A stretch of 64,000 nt of DNA from Myxococcales bacterium (GTDB lineage: Bacteria; Myxococcota_A; UBA9042): contig JBBISH010000008.1 of NCBI GenBank assembly GCA_037441385.1, positions 1 to 64,000 on the forward strand, in the 5' to 3' direction. The first letter of the stretch is position 1, and every line of letters begins with the position of its first letter. A program made the translations under genes and the position numbers. Below the pieces are notes generated by a model. It saw only the letters and a program-made list of their open reading frames with translations. It was not told the DNA's origin and searched no databases. Below, piece after piece: positions 22,515 through 40,165 of this stretch.

Positions 22515-24311
22515 CTAGCCCGGATTGAACACGAACGGCCACTGAATCACACACACGCCCGCTTCGGGCTTCATGAACTTGATGCGGCGGATGGTGCGCA
22601 GCACGCAGTCCGTCACCGACGAATTCTTCATGGTGTCGTCGACGATCTTGTCGTTGGCCACCGAGCCGTCGCCCGTGATCGTCCACTGCACCGTGACCTT
22701 GCCGCTGAGGTCAGGCTTGGCCATCAACTGGGTCTCGTAGCAGGCGCGCAAGCTGGCGGCGCGGGCGCGCACGTTCTTGCTGATGTCGCCCTTGTCGCAG
22801 CCGCCGGTCGAGTTGCCTTGGGCGATGTTGATCTTGGCCACCTTCTTGGCCGACTTGCGGCCGATGCCCATGTCGGCGTTGCGGCCCGTGCCGCCGCCAG
22901 TGTCGATCGCGCCCAGGCCGTGCAAGCGGCCATAGCCTTCGCCGCCGCCGCCCGAGCCCGTGCCGCGGAAGCCCATGCCGCCCGAGCCGTGGCCGATGAC
23001 GAGTTCGCCGCCTTCGCCCGACATCGCGACCGCCATCTTGCTGGAGATCGCGCCCGTGTCGCCGGCCATGATGTTGCCCAACGCGCCGGTCATGGCCTGC
23101 GGGCCGCCCAGCACCTTGGCGATACCGATGTTCTTGACGTCGACCTTGTCGCGCATCGGCCCGTCCATCTTGGGCACTTTGCTCTGCTTGTTCGGATCCT
23201 TGTCCGGATCGCCAAACTTGCCTTCTTCGCCGCCGGCCTTCTTGCCGGTGGTGTCTTCGTCCTCACCCTCGGGCTTGATCTCTTCGGGCTTCTCTTCTTC
23301 CTTTTGCTCCACGGCCACTTCGATGAGGCCGCGGTTTTTCTGCGCCAGTGCTTCGCTCTCGAGCCGGTCCTCGTCGCTCTTGGCGACCGAGTTCACGCCG
23401 ACGAACAGTACGAAGAAGATCGACATCACCGTCGCGAACGACACGGCGAGCGCGGCGTTGCGGGTGCGGTGAGTGCCGACCAGCGCGCCCGGTTGAGCGC
23501 CGGTGAAGTTGAAGTGCAGCTCGATGCCATTCTCGAACGAGATCACGCCCGAGTCGCCGCGGCTGATCGCGTGGCTGCCGCCCGCATCGACCTCGTTGCC
23601 GCCGATCTGGAGGCTACCCGTGGCGCCGTTGGGAACCGTGAGTTGGTACTGCTCGGCCGCGCCCGGCGTGAACAGAACGTGCGAATTGATGCCGTTGGCC
23701 GCCAACTGCAGGGTGTTCTTGTTGTCTTCGCCTACGGTGACGACCGTGGGGACGAAGAACACCTTTTCAGCCACCGTTTGATCGTTCCAGGCCAACGCCA
23801 CGCGCAAGAAGCGCTGGTCCTTGTGGTACTCGTCGAACGAGGCCACCGCCGTCAGGCCGCCAAAGAAGGCCAGCACCGAGCCGAAGACCAGCCAGATCAA
23901 GCCGTTGAGGTGCACATAGGTCTCTGGAATCAGCCCGCCCGACGCGTCGCAGAAGGCCAGCTCCATCGCCTTGCAGGGCACGAGCGTGTAGACCTGATCG
24001 TAGGTCAGCCAGGCCAGCACGATCTGGACCAGCCCGGCGGCGGCGATGCCCCAGCCGAACTTGCGCTTGCGCTGCTTGAAGATCAGCGCGCCCAGTGCCA
24101 CTGAAACCAGCGACAACAACAGCGAAACTTGACCTGTCCAGATCTGGAACCCGGCGATGCCTTTGTAGCCGAACTCTTCGACGTAGACAGCCGAGAACAG
24201 GTTGCGCCACGCCGACGGGTCGGCTTCGGCACCGCCGCCGCCCATGCCGAGGTTGGTGCCCAGCAGCGCGATCAGGCTGCCGATGATTGCTAAAATGGCT
24301 CCGCCGCTCAT
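22515..24311 (-). CDS. GltG-like protein (AgmX/PglI C-terminal TonB-C domain) with an extra N-terminal multi-TM module
   Basis: GGAG RBS; about 4 TM helices, beta-rich cytoplasmic domain, TM, KKAGGEEGKFG, Gly-rich GMGFRGTGSGGGG, LRACYE..GKVTVQWTI..CV..WPFVF. Confidence 0.75.
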   Translation of the reverse strand: MSGGAILAIIGSLIALLGTNLGMGGGGAEADPSAWRNLFSAVYVEEFGYKGIAGFQIWTGQVSLLLSLVSVALGALIFKQRKRKFGWGIAAAGLVQIVLAWLTYDQVYTLVPCKAMELAFCDASGGLIPETYVHLNGLIWLVFGSVLAFFGGLTAVASFDEYHKDQRFLRVALAWNDQTVAEKVFFVPTVVTVGEDNKNTLQLAANGINSHVLFTPGAAEQYQLTVPNGATGSLQIGGNEVDAGGSHAISRGDSGVISFENGIELHFNFTGAQPGALVGTHRTRNAALAVSFATVMSIFFVLFVGVNSVAKSDEDRLESEALAQKNRGLIEVAVEQKEEEKPEEIKPEGEDEDTTGKKAGGEEGKFGDPDKDPNKQSKVPKMDGPMRDKVDVKNIGIAKVLGGPQAMTGALGNIMAGDTGAISSKMAVAMSGEGGELVIGHGSGGMGFRGTGSGGGGEGYGRLHGLGAIDTGGGTGRNADMGIGRKSAKKVAKINIAQGNSTGGCDKGDISKNVRARAASLRACYETQLMAKPDLSGKVTVQWTITGDGSVANDKIVDDTMKNSSVTDCVLRTIRRIKFMKPEAGVCVIQWPFVFNPG

Positions 24312-24587
24312 GTTTCTCCACGCTCGGCCGACCCTGGATCGGCTCGGAGGGGCTGGGCCGGGCACGACCAAACTCAGGTCGCACCAAACCGGGCCGCGAT
24401 GCTAGTTTCGGGGCAACCCCCCGTCAAGCGCCCTTTGCAACTTGATTCGCTACCCCGGCAATTGAGCCCCGACGCGGGGCGGTGCCAGACCCCGGAGCCA
24501 GGCGCGGACCACCGGGTCACGACCATCGACGCGCCAAACGCGCGGGCGATCTACGCCCGGCCGCATGGGCATGATTTTTTCTGGCGC

Positions 24588-26780
24588 TCAGTCGCTGGCC
24601 GCGCTGGCAGGGGCCGCCATGTCTGCGGGCTGGCTGGAACTGGCAGTGCTATTCGTCAGTTCGATCGTCTCGCCGCGCTGCACGGCCGCTTCGGGCACCT
24701 GCGCACGCTGCAGGGCGCCGCAGCCGGCGCGGACCTCGACCACCCGCACGTCGCCGCGCCGACCTTCGGTGGACCAGGGCAGGCGCAGCGTCCACCGCCC
24801 GTTGGGCTCGCTCTGGCCGAACGCCAGCCAACGGTAGCCTTGATCGCCCACCTGCAGCAGCACTTCGGCCCGCGGGACCTGGCCGGTCGCACAGCCGCGC
24901 CCGGTCAGCACGGCCCCCGCCACTCGCTCGAATACCTTGGCCCGCTCGCCGGGCGTGGCGTGGAGCAGCCGCCACTCGGGCCTGGCGGCGCAGCGGCCGT
25001 CGGGGCTGGCGCTGCCGTTGGCGTAAAAAAGCACTTGAGCGTTGCTGCATTCCGCTTCGGCGGTCAGCTGGCGGCTGCCATCGGCGCCGTCGACGACGAA
25101 GCGATCGGCGGGCAGGCCGCGGGCGACGCCATAGGCCCGCAACGCCGCCCCAGGGACTTGCGTGGCGATCCAGTAGCGGATGCGGTGGCGCTGGACCAGC
25201 TGTGGACGATCGCCGGTGGCCAGGATCAGCTCGGCACAGGCGTCCAGGCCGCTGGTCTGGCCGGGGGCGATGAGCGGGCTGCAGACGTTGGCCTGCCCGC
25301 CCCACGCCAGCAGATCGTGGCCAAAGCCCCAGCCGGCCATCACCGCGTAGGTTGGCTTGCTGAGCGGGTTGTCCGCCGCACCGGCCGCGGGCGCGTGGAC
25401 CGCCAGCCAGTCCAACGCCTGCCAAACCGGGACCCGCCGCGCCAGCGGCAGCGGCCGGCTGGCCACGTCCGCCAGGCCAGGCAGCAGCGCTACGCCCGCG
25501 ATCGCGTAGGCCACGCCCGGCCGCACCTGCCGCTCGGCCACCTGCGCCAGCGCCGCCCCGGCCAACACGGCCAGCGGCACCGCCGACAGGGTCGCGAAAC
25601 GCTGTTGCAGCACCCCCAGCGCCACCCCAAGGGCCAGCGCGGCCGCCCATACCAGCACAGTTGGCCTTTGCCTGCGCTGGCGCAGCGCCCACAGCAGCAG
25701 CAGGGGCGTGGCAAGTGCGGGCCAGCTCAGCAGGCTCAGCGTCGCCGTCCATCCGTTTTCCGCGGCGGACGTCGACTCGGCGATGAGCGTCACATAGCCC
25801 TTGCCGGCGACGAAATCGCCCCCGCCGAACAGCGCCTGCCGCCCGGGCCCCCACACAGCCAGAACCAGCGCCGCCACGGCCAGTCCCTGTAGGGCCGACC
25901 ACGCCCGGCCCCGCCCGCCCGGCTGCGGCCGGATCCCCATCGCCAGCAGCGCCGCCGCCGCCATCGCCAGCAACCCTGGCTGCAGCATCGACAAGCCCTC
26001 GGCAACCACGGCGCCGCCTTGCCCCAGGGGCGACGCCGACGCCAGGGGCACCGCCAGTACGCCGGCCGCGCCAAAAACGAGCGCAAGCCGGCGCGAAAAC
26101 GCGCACCGCTGCTCGGCTTCGCTGACGAGGAGCGCGACGCCAGCCCACCCCGCCAGCAGGGCCACGGTCAGCGCCGACGACGGCCACAGGACCAACGGTG
26201 CCATCACCAGGCCGATCGCCCACGCCTGCTGCCCAATTCGGGCCGGCCTCTGCACGGCGAGCAGCGCGGCCAGGGCCGCGAAGGTGACCAACGGCTCGGC
26301 GGCGTGGTGGTCGATCTTGCCGACTTGCGTGTAATTGTGCAGGCCTGGGTGGCAGGCGACGAGCAGCCCGGCCACGGCCATCGCCCGCAGCCGGTGCGCG
26401 TCGTTCGCCAGCTTGCCAGCCACTTGAGCCGCCACCACCGTGGTGGCTACCGCGCAAGCGGTCACCAGGCCATAGCCCGCCCACAGCGCCGCGTTGCGAT
26501 CGCCGCCCAGCGCGGCCGCCGCCGCCGCGCACAAAGCATCGAACCCGTCTGGCCACACGACCCAGTTGCCGACCGGCACGTGGACCCAGGCGTCCTTGTG
26601 CAGGGGCCCGTGGCCTTGGGCCTGCCACAGCATCCGCCGCACGTGGTACCACGAGTCGCCGCTGACCGCGAACCAGCGGTCCCCCCAGTGCAAATCGGAC
26701 AAATTGCGCAGGCGCAGCCCGGCCGTCAACGCGGCCAACAGCAGCAAAAGGAGCCGCGGCGGCACGGCCTTGCGCAGCAT
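24588..26780 (-). CDS. STT3/AglB-like oligosaccharyltransferase (GT-C)
   Basis: GDSWYHVRR, DHHAAE, TLIAES (TIxE), VMAGWGFGH at the WWDYG position, KVFERVAGA; about 13 TM helices. Confidence 0.8.
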   Translation of the reverse strand: MLRKAVPPRLLLLLLAALTAGLRLRNLSDLHWGDRWFAVSGDSWYHVRRMLWQAQGHGPLHKDAWVHVPVGNWVVWPDGFDALCAAAAAALGGDRNAALWAGYGLVTACAVATTVVAAQVAGKLANDAHRLRAMAVAGLLVACHPGLHNYTQVGKIDHHAAEPLVTFAALAALLAVQRPARIGQQAWAIGLVMAPLVLWPSSALTVALLAGWAGVALLVSEAEQRCAFSRRLALVFGAAGVLAVPLASASPLGQGGAVVAEGLSMLQPGLLAMAAAALLAMGIRPQPGGRGRAWSALQGLAVAALVLAVWGPGRQALFGGGDFVAGKGYVTLIAESTSAAENGWTATLSLLSWPALATPLLLLWALRQRRQRPTVLVWAAALALGVALGVLQQRFATLSAVPLAVLAGAALAQVAERQVRPGVAYAIAGVALLPGLADVASRPLPLARRVPVWQALDWLAVHAPAAGAADNPLSKPTYAVMAGWGFGHDLLAWGGQANVCSPLIAPGQTSGLDACAELILATGDRPQLVQRHRIRYWIATQVPGAALRAYGVARGLPADRFVVDGADGSRQLTAEAECSNAQVLFYANGSASPDGRCAARPEWRLLHATPGERAKVFERVAGAVLTGRGCATGQVPRAEVLLQVGDQGYRWLAFGQSEPNGRWTLRLPWSTEGRRGDVRVVEVRAGCGALQRAQVPEAAVQRGETIELTNSTASSSQPADMAAPASAASD

Positions 26781-26783
26781 CGG

Positions 26784-27713
26784 CTACTCCGAGACTTCGT
26801 ACGGCACCAGCAGCACCACGCTGGCTGAGACCATCGCCGCGTGATCACCCGCCGCGTCCACACCGCCGCCCAAGTCCACGCCCACCTTGGTGGTCCGCCA
26901 CGACAGGCCGCCGCAGACCCAGTGGTGGGTGGCCGCGCCGCGCACGATCTGATCGAACTGATAGCCGGCGCGCAGTTGCAGGCCCTCGGCGCCGACCTGG
27001 TAGCCCACGCCAGCGCGGTAACTTTGGCCGTCAGCATCGCCGGCCAAGGCCACGTCGCGGTTGGCCACGCCCCACGATCCGGACACTTCGGCCACCAGCT
27101 GCGAGCCCACAAAGGCCGCGCCGACGGCCACCCGCCGCGGCGCCTCGCGCGGGTCCAGTGCCAGGCCGTTGTGGATGACCGCGCCCAGTCGCACGCTCTG
27201 CAGCCCGACCGTCACGCCCAGATCGCCCGTCCAGCCGTCTACGCTGTGGCTGCCTTGGCTGAGGTTCAAGTAGCGGGCCGAGGCGCCGAGCAGCAACCGG
27301 CTGGTCTCGCTTTGGCCGCCCATGCTCAGGCCCATGCGCACGTCGTGGCCACGGCGGTTGGGGGCGTCGGTCGACCAGCCGAGCTCGCTGGCATAGCCCA
27401 CGCCGGCCGCCAAGCCCCAGGCCGAGGTCGAGTCCACGTAGCTGACAAAGGGCGCCCCCGAGCCCGCCTGGCCAGAGCGGGCGAAACCCGCCTCGAAGAC
27501 CGAGTGTTGCACCTGGCTCATGCCGGCCGGATTGCTGTACAGCGCTGCCCCGGCCACGCCCGAGGCCACCTGGGCATCGGCCGTTCCCAACGAGGTGGTC
27601 CCCGCGCCGGCCGGCCGGTAGGGCCCCATGCCGCACAGCACGCACCAGGCGCCGGCAGCTACCATCCATTTCCACAAGCGTTGCAGGCTCATGCGCTCCC
27701 TAGCGGCGGTCAC
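26784..27713 (-). CDS. Outer-membrane beta-barrel protein (FadL/PorV-like N-terminus)
   Basis: Signal peptide, SLGTADAQVA..ALYSNPAGM motif, alternating amphipathic strands. Confidence 0.65.
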   Translation of the reverse strand: MTAARERMSLQRLWKWMVAAGAWCVLCGMGPYRPAGAGTTSLGTADAQVASGVAGAALYSNPAGMSQVQHSVFEAGFARSGQAGSGAPFVSYVDSTSAWGLAAGVGYASELGWSTDAPNRRGHDVRMGLSMGGQSETSRLLLGASARYLNLSQGSHSVDGWTGDLGVTVGLQSVRLGAVIHNGLALDPREAPRRVAVGAAFVGSQLVAEVSGSWGVANRDVALAGDADGQSYRAGVGYQVGAEGLQLRAGYQFDQIVRGAATHHWVCGGLSWRTTKVGVDLGGGVDAAGDHAAMVSASVVLLVPYEVSE

Positions 27714-28387
27714 GAAGTCTTCTTGTCCGCGGCCTTCTTCATGCGCGCGATCAGGCCCGACCAGCCCTCTTTGCCCAGGATCTTAGCAAAGTTTTGCCGG
27801 TACGACTGCACCTGGCTGGCGTCGTCGACCACGATGTCGAACACCCACCAGCGGCCATCGCCCGGCAGCAACTGGTAGTTCACGTCGGCGCTGGTGGTCT
27901 TGACCTTGAGCACCGTCTGCACCTCGCTGCGGCCGCCGGGTAGGCTGCGGGTCTGCTTGTACGTGATCTCGACGGGCGTGCCGGGCTTGAAGCGCTTGAC
28001 GTAGGTGTTGATCACCATCCGCGTCAGCAGTTGGGTGAACTCGGTCCGCTGCTCGGGCTGCAGGCCATCCCATTGTCCGGGCAGGGTCAGCTTGGCCATC
28101 TCGGCAAAGTCGATGACGCCGTGGAGCTCGTCGCCAATCGCCTTGTGCAACGCCGCAACATCGCTGGTCGCCTTGGACTGCTGATCCAGCTTGGCCGACA
28201 GCCCGGCGATGAATTTCTGCGGATCCCCGGCTGGCTTCTTGGGGCCCGCACTCGGCGCCGGAGCGGCAGGGGTGGCCGGGGCCGCGGCTGGCGGATTGGC
28301 TGGCTTGGCCGCCTTGGGTGCCGCAGCGGCGGGCACGGCAAACAGCGCAACCAGGCAACCCACAACAAGCTTACTCAAATGGGACAT
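27710..28387 (-). CDS. MlaC/Ttg2D(HpnM)-family lipid-binding periplasmic protein
   Basis: IDFAEMAKLTL..W, EFTQLL, WWVFDIVVDDASQVQSYRQNF. Confidence 0.9.
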   Translation of the reverse strand: MSHLSKLVVGCLVALFAVPAAAAPKAAKPANPPAAAPATPAAPAPSAGPKKPAGDPQKFIAGLSAKLDQQSKATSDVAALHKAIGDELHGVIDFAEMAKLTLPGQWDGLQPEQRTEFTQLLTRMVINTYVKRFKPGTPVEITYKQTRSLPGGRSEVQTVLKVKTTSADVNYQLLPGDGRWWVFDIVVDDASQVQSYRQNFAKILGKEGWSGLIARMKKAADKKTS

Positions 28388-28455
28388 GATCTTCCTTGAA
28401 CCCGCCTGCGCCGCCATGGCGCATGCCGATGCAACGCCCGCGAGGGCTCACTCAT

Positions 28456-29892
28456 TCAGGGGCCGGGCTGCGCCAGTTGGGTCAGGTCCATGCCGACCGC
28501 CCGCGACAGCGCCGCCACCGCCACGTTGTAGTTGAAGATCGACTCGGCGTAGGCCATGCGCCGGCGCGTGTAGGCCTCCATGGCGCGCAGCACCTCGGCA
28601 AACTCTTGGAAGCCGTCTTCGTAGGCTTGATTCTCGGCCGAGAGCCAACCGCGGGCCGACTTGTAGGCGCGCTCTTGCACGTCGATCATGGCGCGCGCGT
28701 CGACCATTTCGCGGTACATCTGCCGCACTTCCATTCGCACTTTGGCTTGCTCGCCTTTTTCGAGCAGCGCCGCCTGCTTGGCGTCTAGATCCGCCTGATC
28801 GATCTTTTCGAGCTGCCGCAGCGGATCGACGCTCCAGCGCAGCGCCACGCCCAAGCCGGACGTGGCCGAATTGTTGGGGTTGGTGGCCAACGAGTCCTGC
28901 GTATCCGCCCGGGTCGGGGCGTACGTATAGGCATAGCGCGCCACCAGCACGAAATCCGGCAAGAACTGGTTTCGCGCCAACTGGGCTTGCATCAAGCGAA
29001 CTTGTACGCCACCGCGCTGGGCCAGCAACCGCGGCGAGTTGGCCAGCGCCAGGGTCTCGATCGCCTCCATGGGCACGGTCGGTACCACGACGGGGGTCAG
29101 ATCGCCGGCCGCCTCCACCGGCAATTCGGACGATTCGCCCAGCGCCATGCGCAGGCCATCTTCGGCCTGACCGCGCGATCGCTCGAACTGCCGCACTTTC
29201 TCTTCGATGTCGGCCGAGAACACGTTCAGCTTGGCCAGGTCGGCCTGGTTGAAGCTCGCGTCGCCATCGTCGCGGGCTTTTTCAATCTTCTCGCGCTGTT
29301 CTTGCATCAGCCGCTTGCCGTCGGCGACCAGGTCGCGCAGCTCGGCGACCAGCACCAGGCCCCACCACGCTCGGGCCAGCTGGTAGCGCATCTCGTCTTC
29401 GGCGATGTGGATCGTGACGCGGGCGATGTCCACGCCCTGGCGCGCCATGTCCTTGAGCGTCGAGATCTTGCCAAAGGTGAACAAGGTCTGGCCCATGCTC
29501 ACCGAGGTGACTAGCAGCGGCCCAAACTTGGTGAAGTCGTAGTCTTGCAGCGGCGTGGCGCCGTCGTGGCCCGGCTTCAGCTCGGGCAGGGCCGTACCAA
29601 AAGCGCTGATGTCGAACTTGGGGTACCACGCCGACTGAGCCTCGCGCAGCCTGCTCTCGTACTGGGGCACGCCGAGCCGAGCGGCGGCCAGCAACGGCGA
29701 CTGACGCTTGGCCAGGTGCTGACACTCTTCCAGAGTGCAGCGCAGCTTGGGCGGGGCCGCGAGCGCGCTGGGCTGGACCGCGCCCACCGCCAGACTGGCT
29801 AGCGCTACCGCCATCGCGTGGCCAAGCCGGAGCCTGGCCCAAGGCCAGCGAGCCGTGCGCAACCGAGCCTGATTCAACAGAGAGTCCGCCAT
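28456..29892 (-). CDS. TolC-family outer-membrane protein
   Basis: Two OEP repeats (WYPKF..QTLFTFGK; ALANSP..FLPDF; YNVAVAALSRAVG). Confidence 0.88.
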   Translation of the reverse strand: MADSLLNQARLRTARWPWARLRLGHAMAVALASLAVGAVQPSALAAPPKLRCTLEECQHLAKRQSPLLAAARLGVPQYESRLREAQSAWYPKFDISAFGTALPELKPGHDGATPLQDYDFTKFGPLLVTSVSMGQTLFTFGKISTLKDMARQGVDIARVTIHIAEDEMRYQLARAWWGLVLVAELRDLVADGKRLMQEQREKIEKARDDGDASFNQADLAKLNVFSADIEEKVRQFERSRGQAEDGLRMALGESSELPVEAAGDLTPVVVPTVPMEAIETLALANSPRLLAQRGGVQVRLMQAQLARNQFLPDFVLVARYAYTYAPTRADTQDSLATNPNNSATSGLGVALRWSVDPLRQLEKIDQADLDAKQAALLEKGEQAKVRMEVRQMYREMVDARAMIDVQERAYKSARGWLSAENQAYEDGFQEFAEVLRAMEAYTRRRMAYAESIFNYNVAVAALSRAVGMDLTQLAQPGP

Positions 29893-29895
29893 GAT

Positions 29896-31389
29896 CTAGA
29901 ACCCCGACTTGAGCGGCACGCGGTCGACGGTGTGTGCCAATAGGTTCCAGGCGGCCAGGTAGGCCCCCTCGGCGCCCAAGCCGCAGAAGCTCGCGTCCCC
30001 GCCGATGAGGACGTTCTTGTAGCCGGTCGTGGTCGCCAGCGGGCTGGTGCCCACGGTGTGGGCGATGGCCTCGCCGTAGCCCGGCTGCAATTCACCTGGG
30101 TCGATGTCTTCGGCGCCGTCTTCGCCGCGTTGCAGCCACGGCGTGTGGCGGTGCAACAGGTGTTCGCCCAAGAAGGGCAGCGTGTCTTCGATGCGCTTTT
30201 GCAGGCGGTCCAGCAGCATGCGTGCGGCCGGCGCACCGCCCGAGGCCACGCTGATCGGCACGCGCATCGCCGCCGAAATCAGGCGCACTTCGCGATCGTC
30301 GGCGCTGGTCCCAATGTCGGCGTCGCGGGCGATGTGGATCAGGTTATCCTCTTCCAACGACTGGCTGAGATCGGCCACGGCGAACACGTGGCGCGCCATC
30401 GCCTCGGGCACGGCGCGGGCGCGCACCACGAAATTGCCCACAAAGGTGTGGCAGATCGGCTGCAGCGTGTGCAAGACGTGGTGGTACTCCTCGTTCTGCT
30501 GCTCTTGTGGGATCAGCGTTGCAAAGCGTTTGGGGTCCATGTTGCAGACCACCATGTCGCAGCTGATCACTTCGCGGCGGTCGCGCAGGACCACGCTTTG
30601 GGCCTTGCCGCGGTGCACCTGGATCGACGACACCACCGCCCGCGGCCGCACGTCGCCCGAGGTCTGGATGATCGACGAGAACAAGTCGCGCAGCGCGTTG
30701 GGGCCGCGATCAAAAACCGCGGTGCCGCGCCACAGTTCGGTGACGGCGCGCACGAAGGTAGCCGGGTAGGGCCGCGCCGGTACCATCCCTGAGACGAAGC
30801 GAAACGGCGCCTGCACAAACGCGCGGAACGGGTGGCCGTGGGCAAAGCGCGCCAGCGGATCTTCCAGCGCCCACTCGTCTTCCAGGATCGGGTATTTCTT
30901 GACCAGCGAGCGGAAGCGGAACGTCTCGACCAGACCCGTGGGCGGCAGCACCGGGCGCACCTTCAGCACTTCGTCGACCTGGCCGTCGATCTCGCTGACA
31001 CGGCGGAAGAACACGCCGATCTCCGAGTCGAGGCCGGGGAATTCGCGGCGCAGCTCGCGCTCGAGCAGGCGCGGCTCGGTGCCCACGTTGATGCGCGCCT
31101 TGGGCAGCACCACCTGGAACGAAGGCTCTAGCGGCCGTGGCAGGTTGCGCAGCTCCAGGCCCAGGCTCAGCTCGTCAAAGACCCGCCGCGCCGCCAGCGA
31201 GCTGAGTGCGTAATTCAAGTCCAGGCGCCGGCACAGCGTGTAGCCTTGGTGCTCGTACAGTGCGCCGCTGCTGCCGTGCGCCACGACCAACACGCGGTAA
31301 CCTCGCTTGGCGCAAAGCGCTCCGTAGATCAGCCCGGCGAGATCCGTGCCGATGACCACGACGCTGTAGTGGGAAGAGACCTGGCTCAC
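29896..31389 (-). CDS. Phytoene-dehydrogenase-like flavoprotein-fold protein
   Basis: VVVIGTDLAG..LCAKRGYRVLVV N-terminus; C-terminal TGYKNVLIGGDASFCGLGAEG. Confidence 0.7.
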   Translation of the reverse strand: MSQVSSHYSVVVIGTDLAGLIYGALCAKRGYRVLVVAHGSSGALYEHQGYTLCRRLDLNYALSSLAARRVFDELSLGLELRNLPRPLEPSFQVVLPKARINVGTEPRLLERELRREFPGLDSEIGVFFRRVSEIDGQVDEVLKVRPVLPPTGLVETFRFRSLVKKYPILEDEWALEDPLARFAHGHPFRAFVQAPFRFVSGMVPARPYPATFVRAVTELWRGTAVFDRGPNALRDLFSSIIQTSGDVRPRAVVSSIQVHRGKAQSVVLRDRREVISCDMVVCNMDPKRFATLIPQEQQNEEYHHVLHTLQPICHTFVGNFVVRARAVPEAMARHVFAVADLSQSLEEDNLIHIARDADIGTSADDREVRLISAAMRVPISVASGGAPAARMLLDRLQKRIEDTLPFLGEHLLHRHTPWLQRGEDGAEDIDPGELQPGYGEAIAHTVGTSPLATTTGYKNVLIGGDASFCGLGAEGAYLAAWNLLAHTVDRVPLKSGF

Positions 31390-31518
31390 GCGACCCGCAC
31401 GCCACCTCCACCACCTGGAGCGGCGGGCGCAAGCCTAGCGCAACAGGGCCTGCGGCGCCATTGCCGGGCCGGGCTTGCGCTGCCGGTGCGCCCAGGTAGG
31501 CTTTCCGCGAGGCAAGGG

Positions 31519-32925
31519 ATGCAAAGCGGACAGCGACACGCGGGGCAGGGCAGCAAGTGGGCTCCACCGCTGCTCGTCGCCGCTGTGTGGTTGGCGAGCA
31601 CGTGGGCCGCGCATCACTTGGGGTTGGCCATGCAGGTCGACCTGGGCCGCATGTGGCAGGCGCTCGATCTGGACGAGCTGCGCCGCAACCTGGGCCCGAG
31701 CTTGTGGTATCAGCACAGCCAGCCGCCGCTGTGGAACCTGTTCCTGGGGTCGCTGCTGAAGTTGGGGATCGACCCCAGCGCGCCGGTTGTCCACGGCCTG
31801 TTTGACGGGATCGGGCTGGCCATCGGTCTGCTCACCTGGCGCGTCGCGGTGGAACTGGGCGCGGATCGCGGGTGGGCCGCGTTGGCCGCAAGCCTGCTGC
31901 TCGCATCCCCAGGTTTCACTCTGACGATTCACTGGTTGTTCTACGACGGGCCGGTCACGCTGGTGGTGCTGGTACTCGTTTTGAGCCTGGCGTCCGCGGC
32001 CCACCGCCCCGACTTGCCGCGCCTGATCCTGCTGGCCCTGGCGGCGGCGGGTCTGGTCTGGCTACGAAGTGCCTTTCATCTTGCTTGGTTGCTTGGCCTG
32101 CTCGCGCTGGTGGGCGTGGACCGGTCGCTGCCACGTCGGCGCCTCCTTGGGGCGTTGGCGGCGGCGCTGGTGCTGGCAACCCTGCCGTTTGCCAAGAATG
32201 CGGTGGTGTTTGGCACATTTGCCTCCAGCTCGTGGGCGGGGATGAGCGCTCAGCGCCTGACCAAGACCATGCTCAGTGGCGCGGAGGTGCACACTCAAGT
32301 TGCTGCCAGACGGCTGGCGCCGGTGACCGCGGTGGGGCCGTTCCAGCCGCTGGAGCGCTACGGACCGGTTGCACCGGTGCCGGACCAGTTCGCGCCGATC
32401 GCCGTGCTCAGCGCTGCCCACAAAGCGAGCGGCGAGACCAACTTCAACCACTACGCCTACCTGGAGCTGTCGCGGACGATGGCGCGCGACGCGCTACGGC
32501 TGGTTTTTCGGCATCCCGGCGCCTACTTGCGTGCCCACGCCGCCGCGTGGCTGCAGTGGCTGCGCCCGGCGGCTTTGGATACCAACCTGGGCGAGGGCCG
32601 CCGTGTGCTCCGACCGTGGGTCGATGGCTGGGATCAGTATTTGCTTTTGGATGTGGGCCAGGTCTGGCTGCTGCTGGCGATCGGGGCGCTGCTGGCGCTG
32701 GCGCTGCTGGTCGATCGACTGCGGCCGACCACGGTGGCCCAGCTGCCGGCCCCGCAACGGGCGCTGTGGCGGGCCGCCGCGTGGACCACGCTGTGGATCA
32801 CTCTGCTGGGCAACGCCGTGGAGTATGGCGAAAACTATCGCTTTCGCGGCTACATCGACCCGCTGTTGCTCGCGACCTTGGCTGTGGCGGCGACCCAGTT
32901 GCGATCCCGCTTGCGCAGGCCGTGA
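31519..32925 (+). CDS. Polytopic membrane protein, probable GT-C (ArnT/PMT-like) glycosyltransferase
   Basis: HSQPPLWNLF loop, WLFYD, multiple TM helices, GENYRFR near the C-terminus; start approximate. Confidence 0.6.
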   Translation: MQSGQRHAGQGSKWAPPLLVAAVWLASTWAAHHLGLAMQVDLGRMWQALDLDELRRNLGPSLWYQHSQPPLWNLFLGSLLKLGIDPSAPVVHGLFDGIGLAIGLLTWRVAVELGADRGWAALAASLLLASPGFTLTIHWLFYDGPVTLVVLVLVLSLASAAHRPDLPRLILLALAAAGLVWLRSAFHLAWLLGLLALVGVDRSLPRRRLLGALAAALVLATLPFAKNAVVFGTFASSSWAGMSAQRLTKTMLSGAEVHTQVAARRLAPVTAVGPFQPLERYGPVAPVPDQFAPIAVLSAAHKASGETNFNHYAYLELSRTMARDALRLVFRHPGAYLRAHAAAWLQWLRPAALDTNLGEGRRVLRPWVDGWDQYLLLDVGQVWLLLAIGALLALALLVDRLRPTTVAQLPAPQRALWRAAAWTTLWITLLGNAVEYGENYRFRGYIDPLLLATLAVAATQLRSRLRRP

Positions 32926-33996: not shown

Positions 33997-35034
33997 TCAC
34001 GGCGTAAACAGGTACCACCAGGCCGGGAAGGGCAACGGGTCGCCGTCGCCGCCGATCTTCAGCTCGCCATCGGCCGCCACGCCGCTCTCGCTTACCACGC
34101 CGTGGGCGCTGCCAAACGCGCCCAGGCCGGCCACGGGCGACCAGCTGGTCCCCAGGCCCAGGGCAATCCAGTTGGCCGAAATCACATCGAAATCACTTGC
34201 CGTCTTGTTGGCCAGACCAAACCACTGGCTGGCGGGAGTCTGCGCCGAGCTGGCGATCCAGGCCGCTGGACCTTGGGCCGTGCTATCGGTCGGCCCTTGG
34301 AGCAGCACCGCCCGCGACACTTTGCGCACCTTGGCGATAAAGCCCGCGTGGCCGGCGCCCTCGCCATGGCCGACGATCACAATGTCTTGCCAAAGCGGCG
34401 TGCTGCCCGCCACAAAGTTGCCCCAGCCCTGGCCCGGGCGGTGCTTGGCCAGCCACTGCAGCGCCAACGCCAGGCGCTGTTCGATGCAGTTGTTGAAACC
34501 GACTTTGACTTTGTCGCTGCGGTCCTGGCCGTCCAGCACCTCGTGGCGTACGTACTCGTAGCAGGTGCTGCTTTGGCCGCACAGGCTGGCCGTGCTGGGA
34601 TTGGCGGGGTAGGCCAGGCCCAAGACGCGGTGGCCACGCTGCGCAGCGGTCCACAGGATCTTGCTGTAGTCCTTGGGTTGCATGCCGGTGTCGGGCAGCA
34701 GCACCACCAACTCGCCGCTGCTGGGCACCTGGGCATCAAAGATGGCCAGATGGTCGCCAAACTCGCCGCTCACGCCGGTTTGGGTATTGGTGGCCGGCAC
34801 AAAGCTGTCCACCGCGTCCGAATTGGGGGCTGCCGCTGTGTCTTCTGCGGATCCGGCCATGTCCCCAGTGGCTGTGTCGGCCCCGGTGGTTCCGCTGTCG
34901 GCCGTAAGCGAGGTGGCCGAACTCGTGCCCGGCGTGGGCACAGGGTTGACGACGCAGCCGCCTTGGCCCAGGAGCAGGAGCACCATGAGCCAAAATGCCG
35001 CGCAGGTTGGGCGGCGTGCGAGCGGTGCGATCAT
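33997..35034 (-). CDS. Alpha/beta-hydrolase-fold lipoprotein (BPSS1187-like), nucleophile Ser absent
   Basis: GGC-VVNPVPTP lipoprotein start; RGHRVLGLAYP, VGHGEGAGHA, WWYLF; start approximate. Confidence 0.7.
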   Translation of the reverse strand: MIAPLARRPTCAAFWLMVLLLLGQGGCVVNPVPTPGTSSATSLTADSGTTGADTATGDMAGSAEDTAAAPNSDAVDSFVPATNTQTGVSGEFGDHLAIFDAQVPSSGELVVLLPDTGMQPKDYSKILWTAAQRGHRVLGLAYPANPSTASLCGQSSTCYEYVRHEVLDGQDRSDKVKVGFNNCIEQRLALALQWLAKHRPGQGWGNFVAGSTPLWQDIVIVGHGEGAGHAGFIAKVRKVSRAVLLQGPTDSTAQGPAAWIASSAQTPASQWFGLANKTASDFDVISANWIALGLGTSWSPVAGLGAFGSAHGVVSESGVAADGELKIGGDGDPLPFPAWWYLFTP

Positions 35035-36938
35035 GGCGAATCCCCTGCGGCTGACTCAGCAACCTCTGCCGATTCTGCCAGTTTCACCCCCAGGTCGCCA
35101 GTTGACTGGGTTGCCGGCAGACCTGCCTTGGCATCGCTCACCCGGTGGATCTGCGAGCGACGGCGGTCGCCAAACAGGGCCCCCGGCGGCCGGCGCGGCA
35201 GTTCGACGACAAACCGCGCACCCCCCAAGCTGGGGCTACGCTCGACCCGCACGCGTCCGTCGTGGGCTTTGACGTGGCGCGCCACCGTGGCCAAGCCAAG
35301 GCCGGTACCCTGCGCGCCTTTGGTCGTATAGAACGGCTCGAAAATGCGGTCGTTGTCGCTGGGATCGATGCCTGGGCCGCTGTCGTCGACCGCCAGTTCC
35401 AGCCACTCGCTCTCGCTGCGCAGGCTGACCATCACGCTGCGTTGCTCCACCTCTTGCACGGCATGGGTCGCGTTGATCAGCAGGTTCCACATCACCTGCC
35501 TGATCAGCGCGGCGTCGCCGACGAGAGTCCAGTTCGCGCCTGGGCTGCTCAACGCTTGCGGCGGCGGCACCTGCACGCCCGTCGCCGCCACCGAAGGGCT
35601 TTGCACGCACGACTGCACCGTCTCGCTGGCCAGACTCAGCAAGTCCAGTTCGCCAAACTGCACAGGGCGTGGTCGGGCGAAATCCAAGAATTCGCCAATC
35701 CATTCACTCAGCTGACTGGTTTCACGCACCACGATCCCCATCAGCATGCGCTCGCTCTCGTCCAGCCCGCTGGCCGTCTGCAGCATTTGCACGGCGCCCG
35801 AGATCGACGCCAGCGGGTTGCGAATCTCGTGGGCCACCGCCGACGCCAGCGAACCCACCGTGGCCAGGCGCTCGCGCGAGCGGTGTTCCTCTTCGCGGGC
35901 CCGCACTTCGGTCACGTCGCGCAGCACCAGCACCCGCCCCCATTTCCCGCCGGGATCGCGCAGCGGTGCCACGCGCACGGCCAGCATTTGCGCCTTGCCA
36001 CCCGCGGATTTGCGGGCAATCTGCTGGGTCGAGTGAATGTTCTGCGGCTCGGGGCGCGCCAGCTCCCACTCGCCGGGCGGCCCCGCCAGGGCCTGCTCGA
36101 TCTCGGGCACGGTTGTCGCCAAGGGCCGGCCCAGCAGTTGCTGCCGCTCGAGGCGCAGGATCATCTCGGCCGCCGGATTGGCCGCCGTGACCAAACCGTT
36201 GGGTCCCACTGTGACCAACCCGTCCGGCAAGCTGGTGACCACGTCTTCGTAGTGGACGCGCAGACTTGCCAGCTCACTCCGCTGTTGCTGGGCGCGTCGG
36301 CGGGCTCGTTCCAGCTCGCGCACTAGGTGCGACGCCAGCACGGACGTGGCATAGGCGGCGGCGATCTGGAGCGCCAGGTTGCTGGCAATCTCGAACGGCG
36401 TGGGGGTCTTGACCGCAGGCAGCGCCGACAGATACGCCACGCGCAGCCGCGGCAGCTCGATCCAGCCCACCTCGTCCAGCGACATCGCCACCATACCCAC
36501 GCCGATCGCCGTGGCCGACAAGAGCGAGCCCACACGGTTCAGCAGGATCGCGGCGTTCAGCACGGCCAGCGGCAGGCCGAACAGGAACAAGCTCTGCATG
36601 CCGCCGGTGGCGTGCACCAAGAACAGCGCTAGTACCTCGTCCAGCAGAACCGAGGTCCACGTCAAGCGAACTAGAAACGAATTGTGATTGTGGCCCAACT
36701 GCGCCAGCAGCAGTAAAAGGAAACTGACGCCATAGGCCACGGCGGCCAGTTGGTAGAGCAGGGTCTCGGGCGCCGCGGTGGCCTTCTGCGGCGCCATGCC
36801 CAGGTCGACGGCCACGGCAAAGGCCAACACCCCGGTGATCACCAGCACGCGCGCCAGGGTTGTCCATTTCAGGCGGTCGACCAGCGTGTCGTCCGTCAAC
36901 GGCAAGTCGCCAACGCCGGCCTGTTCCGGATGGGCCAT
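35031..36938 (-). CDS. pilS: PilS-type sensor histidine kinase (TM + PAS + HisKA + HATPase)
   Basis: AHEIRNPL, NLLINA, DSGPG, FYTTK, GTGLGL; follows pilC. Confidence 0.88.
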   Translation of the reverse strand: MAHPEQAGVGDLPLTDDTLVDRLKWTTLARVLVITGVLAFAVAVDLGMAPQKATAAPETLLYQLAAVAYGVSFLLLLLAQLGHNHNSFLVRLTWTSVLLDEVLALFLVHATGGMQSLFLFGLPLAVLNAAILLNRVGSLLSATAIGVGMVAMSLDEVGWIELPRLRVAYLSALPAVKTPTPFEIASNLALQIAAAYATSVLASHLVRELERARRRAQQQRSELASLRVHYEDVVTSLPDGLVTVGPNGLVTAANPAAEMILRLERQQLLGRPLATTVPEIEQALAGPPGEWELARPEPQNIHSTQQIARKSAGGKAQMLAVRVAPLRDPGGKWGRVLVLRDVTEVRAREEEHRSRERLATVGSLASAVAHEIRNPLASISGAVQMLQTASGLDESERMLMGIVVRETSQLSEWIGEFLDFARPRPVQFGELDLLSLASETVQSCVQSPSVAATGVQVPPPQALSSPGANWTLVGDAALIRQVMWNLLINATHAVQEVEQRSVMVSLRSESEWLELAVDDSGPGIDPSDNDRIFEPFYTTKGAQGTGLGLATVARHVKAHDGRVRVERSPSLGGARFVVELPRRPPGALFGDRRRSQIHRVSDAKAGLPATQSTGDLGVKLAESAEVAESAAGDSP

Positions 36939-36944
36939 GGCCGC

Positions 36945-38153
36945 TTACTTCACGTTGTCGCCCATCGTGAAGATTGGCGCATAAAGGGCGATCATGATGG
37001 TACCGACGATGCCGCCCAAGATAAGCATGATGAGCGGTTCCATCATCGACGTCATGCCATCGATGGCTTCGTCCACTTCCGAGTCGTAGAAGTCGGCGAT
37101 CTTGCCCAGCATCACGTCCATGGCGCCAGTGGCCTCGCCCACCGCGATCATCTGCACCACCATCACCGGGAAGATCTGCGTCTCCATCAGCGGGCCCGTC
37201 ACGTTGCGGCCTTCCATGATCTTGTTGCGCGTGTAGTCCACGCCGCGCTCGACCACCAGGTTGCCCGAGGTCTTGCCCACGATCGCCAGCGCCTCGATGA
37301 TCGGCACACCGGCGGCCACCAACGTGCCCAAGGTGCGGGTGAACTTGGCCACCGCGCCCTTTTGCACCACGTTGCCGATGATCGGCCCGTGGAACAACAA
37401 CCAGTCGCGGACGTACGGGCCCTGCTTGGTCTTCATCGCCAGCTTGTACGCCACGACCAGCGCCGCCAGACCGGCGCCCAGAAACGGCGCCTTGGCCATA
37501 AACCCGTCCGAGATATCGACCACCGTCTGGGTGATGCCCGGCAGTTTGGCGCCCATCGACTGGAACGTGGACGCAAAGCTGGGCACCACCTTCCACAGCA
37601 GGCCCACGGTGATGAGCAGCGACACCGAGAGCACCGTCAGCGGGTACTTCATGGCGCCTTTGATCTTCTTTTGGGTCTCGGCGGCCTTTTCGATGTACTC
37701 GGCCAAGCGGTTCATGATGGTGTCCAAGATGCCGCCCATCTCGCCGGCCTGGACCAGGTTGACGTACAACTCCTCAAAAACCTTGGGATACTTCTTCAGG
37801 GCGTCCGAAAACGACGAGCCGCCTTCCACCGACGCCTTCACGCCCAGGATGGTCTTCTTCAGCTGCGGGTTGGGCTCTGAGTTGCCCACCAGATCCAGCG
37901 CCTGCACCAGCGGCAGACCCGCGTCGATCATCGTCGCCATCTGCCGGGTAAAAATCACCATGTTTTTGGTGGGTACACTGGCGCCCAGTCCCGGGATCGT
38001 GAGGTCGATCTCCAGCTGCTTGCGCTTGAGCTTGATGACGTTGACGCCTTGCTGCTTGAGCTTGGCTTTGGCATCGGCTTTGTCGGCAGCATCGACCTCA
38101 CCGCGGCGAAAATCGCCTTCGGTGCTCGTCCCTTCCCATTGCCACATCGCCAT
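36945..38153 (-). CDS. pilC: Type IV pilus inner-membrane platform protein
   Basis: FTRQMATMIDAGLP, AGEMGG, GEATG, MEPLIM. Confidence 0.95.
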   Translation of the reverse strand: MAMWQWEGTSTEGDFRRGEVDAADKADAKAKLKQQGVNVIKLKRKQLEIDLTIPGLGASVPTKNMVIFTRQMATMIDAGLPLVQALDLVGNSEPNPQLKKTILGVKASVEGGSSFSDALKKYPKVFEELYVNLVQAGEMGGILDTIMNRLAEYIEKAAETQKKIKGAMKYPLTVLSVSLLITVGLLWKVVPSFASTFQSMGAKLPGITQTVVDISDGFMAKAPFLGAGLAALVVAYKLAMKTKQGPYVRDWLLFHGPIIGNVVQKGAVAKFTRTLGTLVAAGVPIIEALAIVGKTSGNLVVERGVDYTRNKIMEGRNVTGPLMETQIFPVMVVQMIAVGEATGAMDVMLGKIADFYDSEVDEAIDGMTSMMEPLIMLILGGIVGTIMIALYAPIFTMGDNVK

Positions 38154-38184
38154 CGTGCACCCCTACTCTTTCGCCAGAAAGCCA

Positions 38185-39924
38185 CTAGTCGTTGCGGGTC
38201 ACGCGCAGCACTTCTTCCAACGTCGTCAGGCCTTGCCGCAGCTTGTTCAGCGCCGACATGCGCAACGTCTGCAGGCCGTCCTCGATGGCCACTCGCTTGA
38301 GCTCGCCGGACGAGCTGCCCTGCAACACCGCCTCGCGCAAGTTGTCGCTCATGGGCATGATCTCGTAGATGGCGACGCGGCCCTTGTACCCCGAGTCGTT
38401 GCAGGTCTTGCAGCCGACTCCCTTCATGAAACCACCCTTGTCGTAATCTTCTTCCGACATGCCGGCGTCCAGGCAGGCGCGCCGGTCGGGCGCAAAGGGC
38501 GCCTTGCACTCCGGGCAGATGCGGCGCACCAGACGCTGGGCGGCGATGAGGTTGAGCGCGGCTGTCACCATGAACGGTTCCACGCCCATGTTCAGCAGAC
38601 GCGAAATCGTCGACGGCGCGTCGTTGGTGTGCAGGGTCGACAGCACCATGTGGCCGGTGAGCGCGGCCTTGATGCCGATTTCGGCCGTCTCGAAGTCACG
38701 GATCTCGCCGACCATGAGCACATCCGGGTCTTGCCGCAAGAACGAGCGAAGCACCGAGGCGAACGTCAGGCCGATGGCGTCGTTCATCTGCACCTGGTTG
38801 ATGCCTTCCAGGTTGAATTCCACGGGATCTTCGGCGGTCGAGCAGTTCTCGCTCACCTTGTTCAGCTCGGTCAGCGCCGAGTAGAGCGTCGTGGTCTTGC
38901 CCGAACCCGTGGGCCCCGTCACCAGCACCATGCCAAACGGCTGGTGAATGGCGTGCTTGAACTTGTCCAGCTCGGTTTGGTCAAAGCCCAGCTTGGTCAT
39001 GTCGGTCTGCAGGTTGGCCTTGTCCAGCAGACGCATGACGACTTTTTCGCCAAACAGGCACGGCAGCACCGACACGCGGAAGTCGCACTCCTTGCCGTCG
39101 GCCAGCTTGAGCTTGATACGGCCGTCTTGCGGCAAGCGGCGCTCGGCGATGTCGAGCTGGCTCATGATCTTGATACGGCTGACGATCGCGTTGCGCAGCT
39201 TGAGCGGCGGCCGCATGATCTCGTGCAGCACGCCGTCCACGCGGTAGCGCACGCGGAAGGCCTTTTCGTACGACTCGATGTGGATGTCCGAGGCGCGGCG
39301 CTTGATCGCGTCGATCAGGATCAGGTTCACCAGCTTGACGACCGGCGCCTCTTCGGACGATTGCTTGAGCTCCTCGGTGTTGACGTTGTCTTCATCCGTC
39401 ATGATTTCGAGGGTTTCGCTCATCTCCTCGAAGATCTGCAGCTGATCGACCGAGCCGTACAGCTTGCCGCGGACCTTGGTGATGTCGTCTTCGGGCGCCA
39501 CCACGATCTCGACGTTCAGGCCCGTCTTGAACTTCAGGTCGTCGATCGCGTGGTAATTGCCCGGGTCGGTCAGTGCCACCACCAGCGTCGTCCCGTGCAC
39601 GGCGATCGGCAAAAGCTGGTGCCGTTCGCACAGTTCGCGCGGTACCAACCGCGTCACGTCCGGGGCAATCTCGACTTGATTCAGGTCGATCGACGGCACC
39701 TGGTACTGCCGCGACAAGAAGTCGACCATCTGCGACTTGTCGACGTAGCCCAGCGCCTGCAGCGCCGAACCCAGGTGCTTGCCGGTCTTGGCCGCTTCGG
39801 CCGCCGCGTTCTTCAGCTGTTCGACCGACACGACCCGCTCGCGCAGGAGCATGTCGCCCATGCCTTTGGCGACGGCGGGCAGGTACTGCGAAGGGCGCGT
39901 TCGGACGGGGGTATCGTCACTCAT
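38185..39924 (-). CDS. pilB: Type IV pilus assembly ATPase
   Basis: ASDIHIE, RLPQDGR, GPTGSGKTTT, RQDPD, CxxC..CxxC zinc motif, MshEN-like N-terminus. Confidence 0.96.
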   Translation of the reverse strand: MSDDTPVRTRPSQYLPAVAKGMGDMLLRERVVSVEQLKNAAAEAAKTGKHLGSALQALGYVDKSQMVDFLSRQYQVPSIDLNQVEIAPDVTRLVPRELCERHQLLPIAVHGTTLVVALTDPGNYHAIDDLKFKTGLNVEIVVAPEDDITKVRGKLYGSVDQLQIFEEMSETLEIMTDEDNVNTEELKQSSEEAPVVKLVNLILIDAIKRRASDIHIESYEKAFRVRYRVDGVLHEIMRPPLKLRNAIVSRIKIMSQLDIAERRLPQDGRIKLKLADGKECDFRVSVLPCLFGEKVVMRLLDKANLQTDMTKLGFDQTELDKFKHAIHQPFGMVLVTGPTGSGKTTTLYSALTELNKVSENCSTAEDPVEFNLEGINQVQMNDAIGLTFASVLRSFLRQDPDVLMVGEIRDFETAEIGIKAALTGHMVLSTLHTNDAPSTISRLLNMGVEPFMVTAALNLIAAQRLVRRICPECKAPFAPDRRACLDAGMSEEDYDKGGFMKGVGCKTCNDSGYKGRVAIYEIMPMSDNLREAVLQGSSSGELKRVAIEDGLQTLRMSALNKLRQGLTTLEEVLRVTRND

Positions 39925-40165
39925 GGGCTTGAACCTCGGCAACTACGGCGCGCCGCCGGCCCTTGGGCTGGCCAACCGGCGGCCTGGGAGCCCGGCAGTG
40001 GGCAACACGACAAAGCCGCCCGACCAACTCGGTGGACGGCGTCATCGCTCACACCGTAGCAGATGATGCGAAATCCGCAATCGCGCGAGACCCGGTCGCA
40101 CGTGCCCGTCCCATCCGTGGGCAGCGCAACCGGGGACCGTCGAAGTGGCGAATGGTCAAGAAGTT

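Follow-up and report, generated by a model that had tools for sequence, protein, structure and literature searches.

The 64,000 nt window analysed here (the whole stretch of DNA, from contig JBBISH010000008.1 of a Myxococcales bacterium, assembly GCA_037441385.1) encodes a TolC-fold outer-membrane channel directly followed by an MlaC-family periplasmic lipid shuttle. The analysis points, with modest rather than firm confidence, to an adaptor-less TolC that stands in for MlaA at the outer-membrane end of an MlaC-type lipid shuttle. Four observations lead to this reading: the pairing of the two genes, the near-exclusion between this TolC and MlaA, the place of tolC between mlaD and mlaC in the operons of other lineages, and the lack of adaptor genes near it. 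The two genes are:

28456-29892, minus strand: TolC-fold outer-membrane channel, 478 aa, PF02321
27710-28387, minus strand: MlaC/HpnM-family periplasmic lipid shuttle, 225 aa from the second ATG, PF05494

Across the phylum, genomes with MlaC carry either MlaA or the TolC subfamily found in the window. In a sample of 151 genomes, each at least 90% complete, MlaC was found in 118 and MlaA in 28. A subfamily profile, built from 34 MlaC-adjacent TolCs and used to score 10 candidates per genome, gave members at least 241 bits and the next full-length proteins at most 162 bits, and 94 of the 151 genomes were positive. There are 91 genomes that combine MlaC with the TolC subfamily without MlaA, 27 that combine MlaC with MlaA without the TolC subfamily, and none that have both; every genome with MlaC has one of the two, and none of the 94 profile-positive genomes gave an MlaA match. 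Moreover, tolC and mlaC are adjacent in 78 of the 91 genomes, 77 of which have tolC first. Of 40 distant MlaC loci, 13 come from MlaA genomes and are mla-operon or MMPL loci without TolC, while 21 of the other 27 are TolC-adjacent. Closer to the window, MlaA (PF04333) was not found in the source genome (90.9% complete) or in any of 12 family genomes searched, where the E. coli control was positive.

The same TolC occurs in other lineages and in other contexts. A scan for the PLYTFGK motif over one genome per species, which favours GC-rich genomes, returned at least 120 matches, 80 of them with flanking sequence. Among the flanked matches listed, 71 of the 80 are subfamily TolCs, and mlaC is adjacent in 47 of the 67 loci with room for it. 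In particular, 14 of the 71 loci among the matches listed are complete mlaE/F/D-tolC-mlaC operons, often with mlaB, in which tolC lies between mlaD and mlaC; they belong to Geobacter, Desulfuromonadaceae, Guyparkeria, Halothiobacillus, Hydrogenophilales and unclassified records, and a short MlaD is encoded in the Geobacter and proteobacterial operons. Of 10 genomes that carry motif-scan loci, 8 gave no MlaA match, among them Myxococcus dinghuensis and Guyparkeria, the latter with a complete genome.

An out-of-sample test used the proteobacterial family of genome G178, with 61 genomes, none of which had contributed to the TolC profile. MlaA was not found in 16 of the 23 genomes with the TolC, as against 3 of the 38 without it (Fisher p 7e-7, which is overstated since kin are not independent), and all 12 top loci read mlaF-E-D-tolC-C-B. 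Further, seven subfamily paralogues among the listed matches (L300, L308-L311, L313 and L316) lie in MMPL-MlaC loci. As MMPL-MlaC-MlaA loci also exist, the TolC subfamily occupies both of the usual MlaA contexts. A search for TolC-MlaC fusions among longer proteins scored none, which is weak evidence. Some subfamily TolCs stand apart from mlaC, tail-to-tail with a second, divergent TolC (L303, L314, L315, L168, L171, L189, L192 and L227, several of them labelled Polyangiaceae).

The window TolC matches PF02321 (E 5e-38), and its predicted structure is a regular protomer (pLDDT 94.2) with a TM-score of ~0.8 to E. coli TolC at 16-17% identity. Its subfamily is marked by the motifs PLYTFGK and PFxxDPxN and by acidic periplasmic tips. 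The H3-H4 tip carries a two-residue insertion and has a mean charge of -3.4 (-3 or below in 107 of 160 members); the same tip has charges of -1 to +2 in seven other aligned TolCs of this genome. The H7-H8 tip of the window TolC retains the conserved glycine turn. Of 170 subfamily open reading frames (ORFs; some loci are duplicated), 1 has an adaptor gene within 3 kb; of the 10 other TolC genes of the source genome, which has ten adaptor genes in all, 8 have one within 6 kb. The window MlaC matches PF05494 (E 5e-33, 114.7 bits against a cut-off of 26), and has a signal peptide and a Pro/Ala linker; against the HpnM model TIGR03481 it reaches 75 of the required 160 bits, below the cut-off. The TolC-linked MlaCs have a mean charge of +4.3 over their last 150 residues.

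Complex prediction, which the sequence-only reading had proposed as a check on MlaC and TolC, gave weak support. Two TolC protomers with MlaC scored 0.41 against 0.00 for the best control, with at least 95% contact agreement and a partner pLDDT of 79; the job is unlike the calibration pairs, and the prediction gave no interface. In the calibration, the mark was reached by 116 of 157 solved pairs and 2 of 215 mismatched pairs, and the values at or below 0.60 comprise 18 solved pairs and both mismatches.

Under the favoured reading, MlaC would dock on the TolC trimer, probably through the acidic periplasmic tips and basic patches on MlaC, take a glycerophospholipid-type lipid from the outer membrane via TolC, and carry it to an inner-membrane MlaFE-MlaD complex. 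Retrograde phospholipid traffic would be the natural guess where TolC sits in mlaFEDB operons with a short MlaD. In the source genome, the partner may be one of four long-MlaD systems encoded elsewhere, with an MMPL pump as the alternative. That genome has mlaE, mlaF and long mlaD genes unlinked to the locus (5 MlaE and 4 MlaD matches), where the MlaD lengths are 325, 355, 411 and 552 aa and none is a short single-domain protein. It also has two MMPL-type genes, neither at the locus: one stands alone and the other belongs to a second MlaC-MMPL pair. In that pair (C52:25546-28780), a second, divergent mlaC lies directly upstream of the MMPL gene, with no TolC or MlaA beside it.

A broader reading, about as likely as not, has the TolC subfamily repurposed: once an efflux duct driven through an adaptor, it would now be a port that passes membrane lipids directly to MlaC or receives them from it. 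In that case most Myxococcota-group lineages, Geobacter and scattered sulfur-oxidising proteobacteria would use it as the standard outer-membrane end of their MlaC shuttles, it would have been swapped with MlaA more than once, and it would serve both MlaFED and MMPL inner-membrane machines.

Several points weigh against the replacement of MlaA. The phylum pattern is confounded by descent, as a few families account for the MlaA genomes, which may form a single clade; the TolC profile was derived in part from the genomes that it then scored, and its cut-off was set afterwards at the observed score gap. Adjacency of tolC and mlaC was not seen in 13 of the 91 phylum genomes (4 of them without a listed MlaC position), and no mlaC adjoins tolC in 20 of the 67 motif loci among the matches listed. 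The exclusion is also incomplete: two Geobacter genomes carry both MlaA and the TolC subfamily, as do 7 of the 23 TolC genomes of the G178 family, where two of the seven have their MlaA at an MMPL-MlaC locus of its own and the context of MlaA in the rest is unexplained. The source genome has only long MlaD, a type proposed to work without MlaC in the accessible part of PMC10665443. The wider control set for the tip charge is small (20) and contains fragments of the subfamily itself. MlaC-TolC binding, the lipid cargo and the direction of transport are all inferred, and how a TolC trimer would lift a lipid from the leaflet is unexplained.

In the window, the pair sits within a run of five minus-strand genes, with a sixth gene transcribed divergently. 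The other four are:

29896-31389, minus strand: CrtI/CrtD-fold protein (flavoprotein-fold), 497 aa, first gene of the minus-strand run
26784-27713, minus strand: FadL/TodX-like outer-membrane barrel, 309 aa, TodX profile and NPA hatch motif
24588-26780, minus strand: AglB-L-like STT3 oligosaccharyltransferase, 730 aa, TIGR04154 and PF18079
31510-32925, plus strand: polytopic membrane protein with GT-C (PMT-like) resemblance, 471 aa, ESM features only

None of the six ORFs is interrupted, and all have the codon bias of coding sequence. Homologues carry Myxococcales or Deltaproteobacteria labels, which makes the host an uncultured bacterium of the Myxococcota group. The layout described by the sequence-only reading holds, with intergenic gaps of 3, 68, -4 and 3 nt in the minus-strand run; the 68 nt gap assumes that mlaC starts at the ATG at 28387, and an upstream ATG at 28417 would shorten it to 38 nt. 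The plus-strand gene has its best start at 31510, 120 nt from the first minus-strand gene. Profiles from Pfam and NCBIfam bear out the TolC, MlaC and STT3 family calls, the predicted structure agrees with the CrtI-like call, and likeness to the TodX profile agrees with the barrel call. For the GT-C call there is a lead only: the ESM features resemble PMT/PMT_2 (GT-C) clusters at 0.99, and the profile scan gave no Pfam match. The absence of mlaFEDB and of an adaptor near the locus was also correctly noted. A scan for promoters and terminators did not exceed chance level (1 promoter-like site where 0.6 would be expected, and 3 terminator-like sites where 5.2 would be).

The sequence-only reading had joined all six genes into one pathway that modifies, glycosylates and delivers a lipid or lipoprotein to the outer membrane, and had named neighbourhood conservation as a check, with its absence as a refutation. 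The comparison covered the MlaC regions of 23 of 24 family relatives, 15 other class genomes and 5 class loci picked via the flavoprotein-fold gene. All 23 of the 23 family loci keep TolC, MlaC and the barrel together, and 20 of them also have the flavoprotein-fold gene upstream (two loci end at a contig edge and one lacks the gene). STT3 follows in 7 of the 23, all in one genus (7 of the 10 relatives from that genus, against 0 of the 13 remaining family loci); the five-gene run is whole in 6 of the 10 genus relatives, and in a seventh it is cut short by a contig end, so that just the upstream gene is missing. Each of the 10 genus relatives has an STT3 orthologue, but in G003 and G006 a different gene comes after the barrel, and no STT3 match was found in 10 of 14 other family genomes. 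The GT-C-like gene is adjacent in 2 of the 23 loci, those of the two closest genomes (G005 and G007), and its homologues in seven other genomes are located elsewhere. Beyond the family, the barrel gene has varied neighbours, and it adjoins the pair in none of 22 class loci. The check thus upholds the tolC-mlaC pair, which persists, while the refuting outcome was observed for the other four of the six genes, and the six-gene pathway was rejected on co-conservation.

Because the linkage of each neighbour stops at a different taxonomic depth, the locus is best read as a housekeeping operon assembled in layers around a functional core of tolC-mlaC, with the flavoprotein-fold, STT3 and GT-C-like genes acquired at the class, genus and species levels.

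The product of the first gene of the run has an AlphaFold model (pLDDT 91.7) whose best match is 4rep (Z 26.9, rmsd 3.6, 450 aligned residues), which places it in the CrtI/CrtD fold. GxGxxG binds FAD, and an acidic residue at the end of the second strand normally binds the FAD ribose. In this protein the motif is degenerate (GTDLAG), a loss shared family-wide; among 149 distant homologues, 105 have D/E/Q and 7 have G where the motif has its second glycine, and at the strand-end position 77 have G and 31 have D/E. Since the FAD-binding glycines are lost, redox modification of a lipid by this protein is unlikely. Further, of 35 more distant loci with the gene, 23 have purM and/or purN no more than a few kb away and none has this TolC or MlaC next to it; several class genomes have the order purM-purN-flavoprotein-tolC-mlaC, and two have purM-purN-tolC-mlaC. 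In the phylum, 65 genomes have both this gene and the TolC subfamily, 9 have only the former and 29 only the latter. On these two grounds, motif loss and purM-purN linkage, the protein was rejected as the lipid-modifying enzyme. The product is probably a pseudo-flavoenzyme, ancestrally the third gene of purM-purN and a passenger here. A RabGDI-like lipid carrier was also considered and set aside as speculation, with RabGDI ranking 21st (Z 18.1 against 26.9 for CrtD). The CrtI-fold family without the FAD motif is widespread, with 385 representatives at E up to 1e-30 and a purM-purN neighbour in many Myxococcota-group genomes.

The barrel resembles the TodX profile (E 1.8e-4) and has an N-terminal hatch with an NPA motif, in which N61 and P62 are invariant in 18 of 18 sequences. 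Its FadL/PorV-like family has no Pfam model and occurs as a single copy in 76 of the 151 phylum genomes; of these 76, 75 also have the TolC subfamily. A barrel match was not found in 19 phylum genomes with the TolC subfamily, the gene is unlinked to tolC outside the family, and shared descent can explain the co-occurrence; a universal TolC partner was therefore dismissed, and the FadL-like barrel may be an accessory of tolC-mlaC in this family. Elsewhere (L372-L388), in one family, the barrel gene precedes genes for Kazal-repeat lipoproteins.

The STT3 protein matches TIGR04154 (E 2e-33, below the cut-off) and PF18079, and shares with Archaeoglobus AglB-L (PDB 3WAJ/5GMY) its domain layout, including the L1 domain, as well as the DxWY, DHH and RF residues. 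The metal-binding DxWY and DHH motifs and the arginine for the lipid-linked sugar are kept (D42, D157-H159 and R394 line up with AglB-L, and 8 of 8 sequences share them). In contrast to AglB-L, the Ser/Thr-binding WWDYG motif is degenerate (GWGFG in the window, GWGFG or SWSxG in 8 of 8, with only the second Trp and the Gly-His retained), making canonical N-X-S/T recognition doubtful and suggesting that the acceptor may be unusual. Close orthologues are nearly confined to one genus. Right after STT3 is a GltG/AgmX-like gene (22515-24371) with a TonB-C tail and an NF033760 match below the cut-off, which is linked only in the two closest genomes. Farther away, 35031-39942 holds a pilB-pilC-pilS cluster (names from sequence likeness), with no pilT or pilR called between or beside.

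Three other explanations of the locus were weighed. The same TolC-MlaC partnership could run outward, where MlaC carries a lipid from an inner-membrane MMPL/HpnN-type pump or an MCE complex and TolC delivers it (an inositol lipid, a sphingolipid or a sterol) to the outer membrane or surface, perhaps helped by the barrel. TolC proteins are normally exit ducts, and MMPL genes follow tolC-mlaC directly in L169, L201 and L204 and accompany the TolC in the paralogous MMPL-MlaC loci, two of which (L309 and L313) enclose an inositol-1-phosphate synthase gene. In Myxococcaceae (L197, L224, L208 and L209), tolC-mlaC converges on a serine-palmitoyltransferase-like gene, a gene without an NCBIfam match and a reductase, a cluster that presumably resembles bacterial ceramide synthesis clusters, and the stand-alone MMPL and second MlaC-MMPL pair of the source genome also favour an outward route. 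This explanation is the main rival but nevertheless unlikely: the commonest complete context is an mlaFED(B) operon with a short MlaD, which is the retrograde machine of E. coli type; the MMPL-linked MlaCs of the paralogous loci form a clade apart from the window MlaC (SH-aLRT 99, in a quick tree with many open forks that gives no order of events); and no conserved lipid-synthesis gene lies beside tolC-mlaC in this class.

Alternatively, TolC could be an ordinary exit duct that serves a distantly encoded pump or type I secretion system and is only co-regulated with mlaC as part of an envelope operon. The normal TolC fold, the retained H7-H8 glycine turn, the ten adaptor genes of the source genome and the fact that E. 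coli tolC is itself unlinked to its pumps are consistent with such a duct, but it would leave unexplained the near-exclusion with MlaA in two separate groups, the fixed mlaD-tolC-mlaC position and the acidic H3-H4 insertion, and it is regarded as quite improbable. The single six-gene pathway is the hardest to sustain and is considered very improbable. Its STT3 is unlinked or not found outside one genus, its GT-C-like gene is rarely adjacent, and its flavoprotein-fold protein lacks the FAD-binding residues, follows purM-purN elsewhere and is distributed unlike TolC; this outweighs the short gaps that suggest one transcript, the co-occurrence of five genes in most genus relatives, and an altered STT3 acceptor motif that could suit an unusual substrate.

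Compared with known systems, the replacement of MlaA by TolC combines familiar parts in a different way. With the TolC/OprM efflux ducts, which work with an RND or ABC pump and an adaptor, the window TolC shares its fold at low identity; it differs in having no adaptor gene near 169 of 170 subfamily ORFs, though an unlinked adaptor and pump may serve it, and in an acidic insertion at one periplasmic tip. The MMPL-MlaC-MlaA loci, which were observed directly and presumably correspond to the hopanoid-type HpnN (MMPL)-HpnM (MlaC-like)-MlaA loci, share an MlaC-like shuttle with an outer-membrane partner, and paralogous MMPL-MlaC-TolC loci exist; the window has no MMPL, its MlaC falls below the HpnM cut-off, and TolC stands instead of MlaA. 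The E. coli Mla system (OmpC/F-MlaA, MlaC, MlaFEDB) has in common with the locus an MlaC-family shuttle, the mlaF-E-D-(tolC)-C-B operons of relatives and a likely electrostatic recruitment of MlaC. In the accessible part of PMC10719372, an acidic MlaA tail is described as recruiting a basic MlaC patch in E. coli by electrostatics. Here, unlike in E. coli, no MlaA was found, a TolC-fold trimer is in its place, mlaFED is unlinked and every MlaD is long. The locus thus fails canonical Mla membership (no MlaA found and no short MlaD), yet we infer that it works like Mla.

The nearest published arrangement is the mlaEFD-tolC-tamB operon of Veillonella and other Negativicutes, as given in the accessible text of PMC10665443 and its preprint. 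It shares with the relatives' operons a tolC directly after mlaD in a system without MlaA, but it has no MlaC, its long MlaD is proposed to bridge the periplasm without one, and that text gives TolC no role. Within the accessible portion of the MCE neighbourhood survey PMC5561183, TolC neighbours are not listed, and nothing relevant appears in the corresponding portions of PMC13631591 or PMC13082787. The sequence-only reading did not recognise a described system, and the literature search likewise found no published description of the TolC-MlaC pair, with subscription papers and supplements (e.g. the 1,083-genome table of PMC10665443) outside its reach.

In bacteria unlike E. coli, the passage of lipids across the periplasm is still an open question. 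The published picture, as far as the accessible text of PMC10665443 presents it, has either MlaA with MlaC or a long bridging MlaD. A TolC-fold partner with MlaC suggests that there is a third arrangement, in which a member of the TolC family would do something other than export. As the pair occurs in records of cultured Myxococcus, Corallococcus, Pyxidicoccus and Guyparkeria and in Geobacter assemblies, the idea is directly testable.

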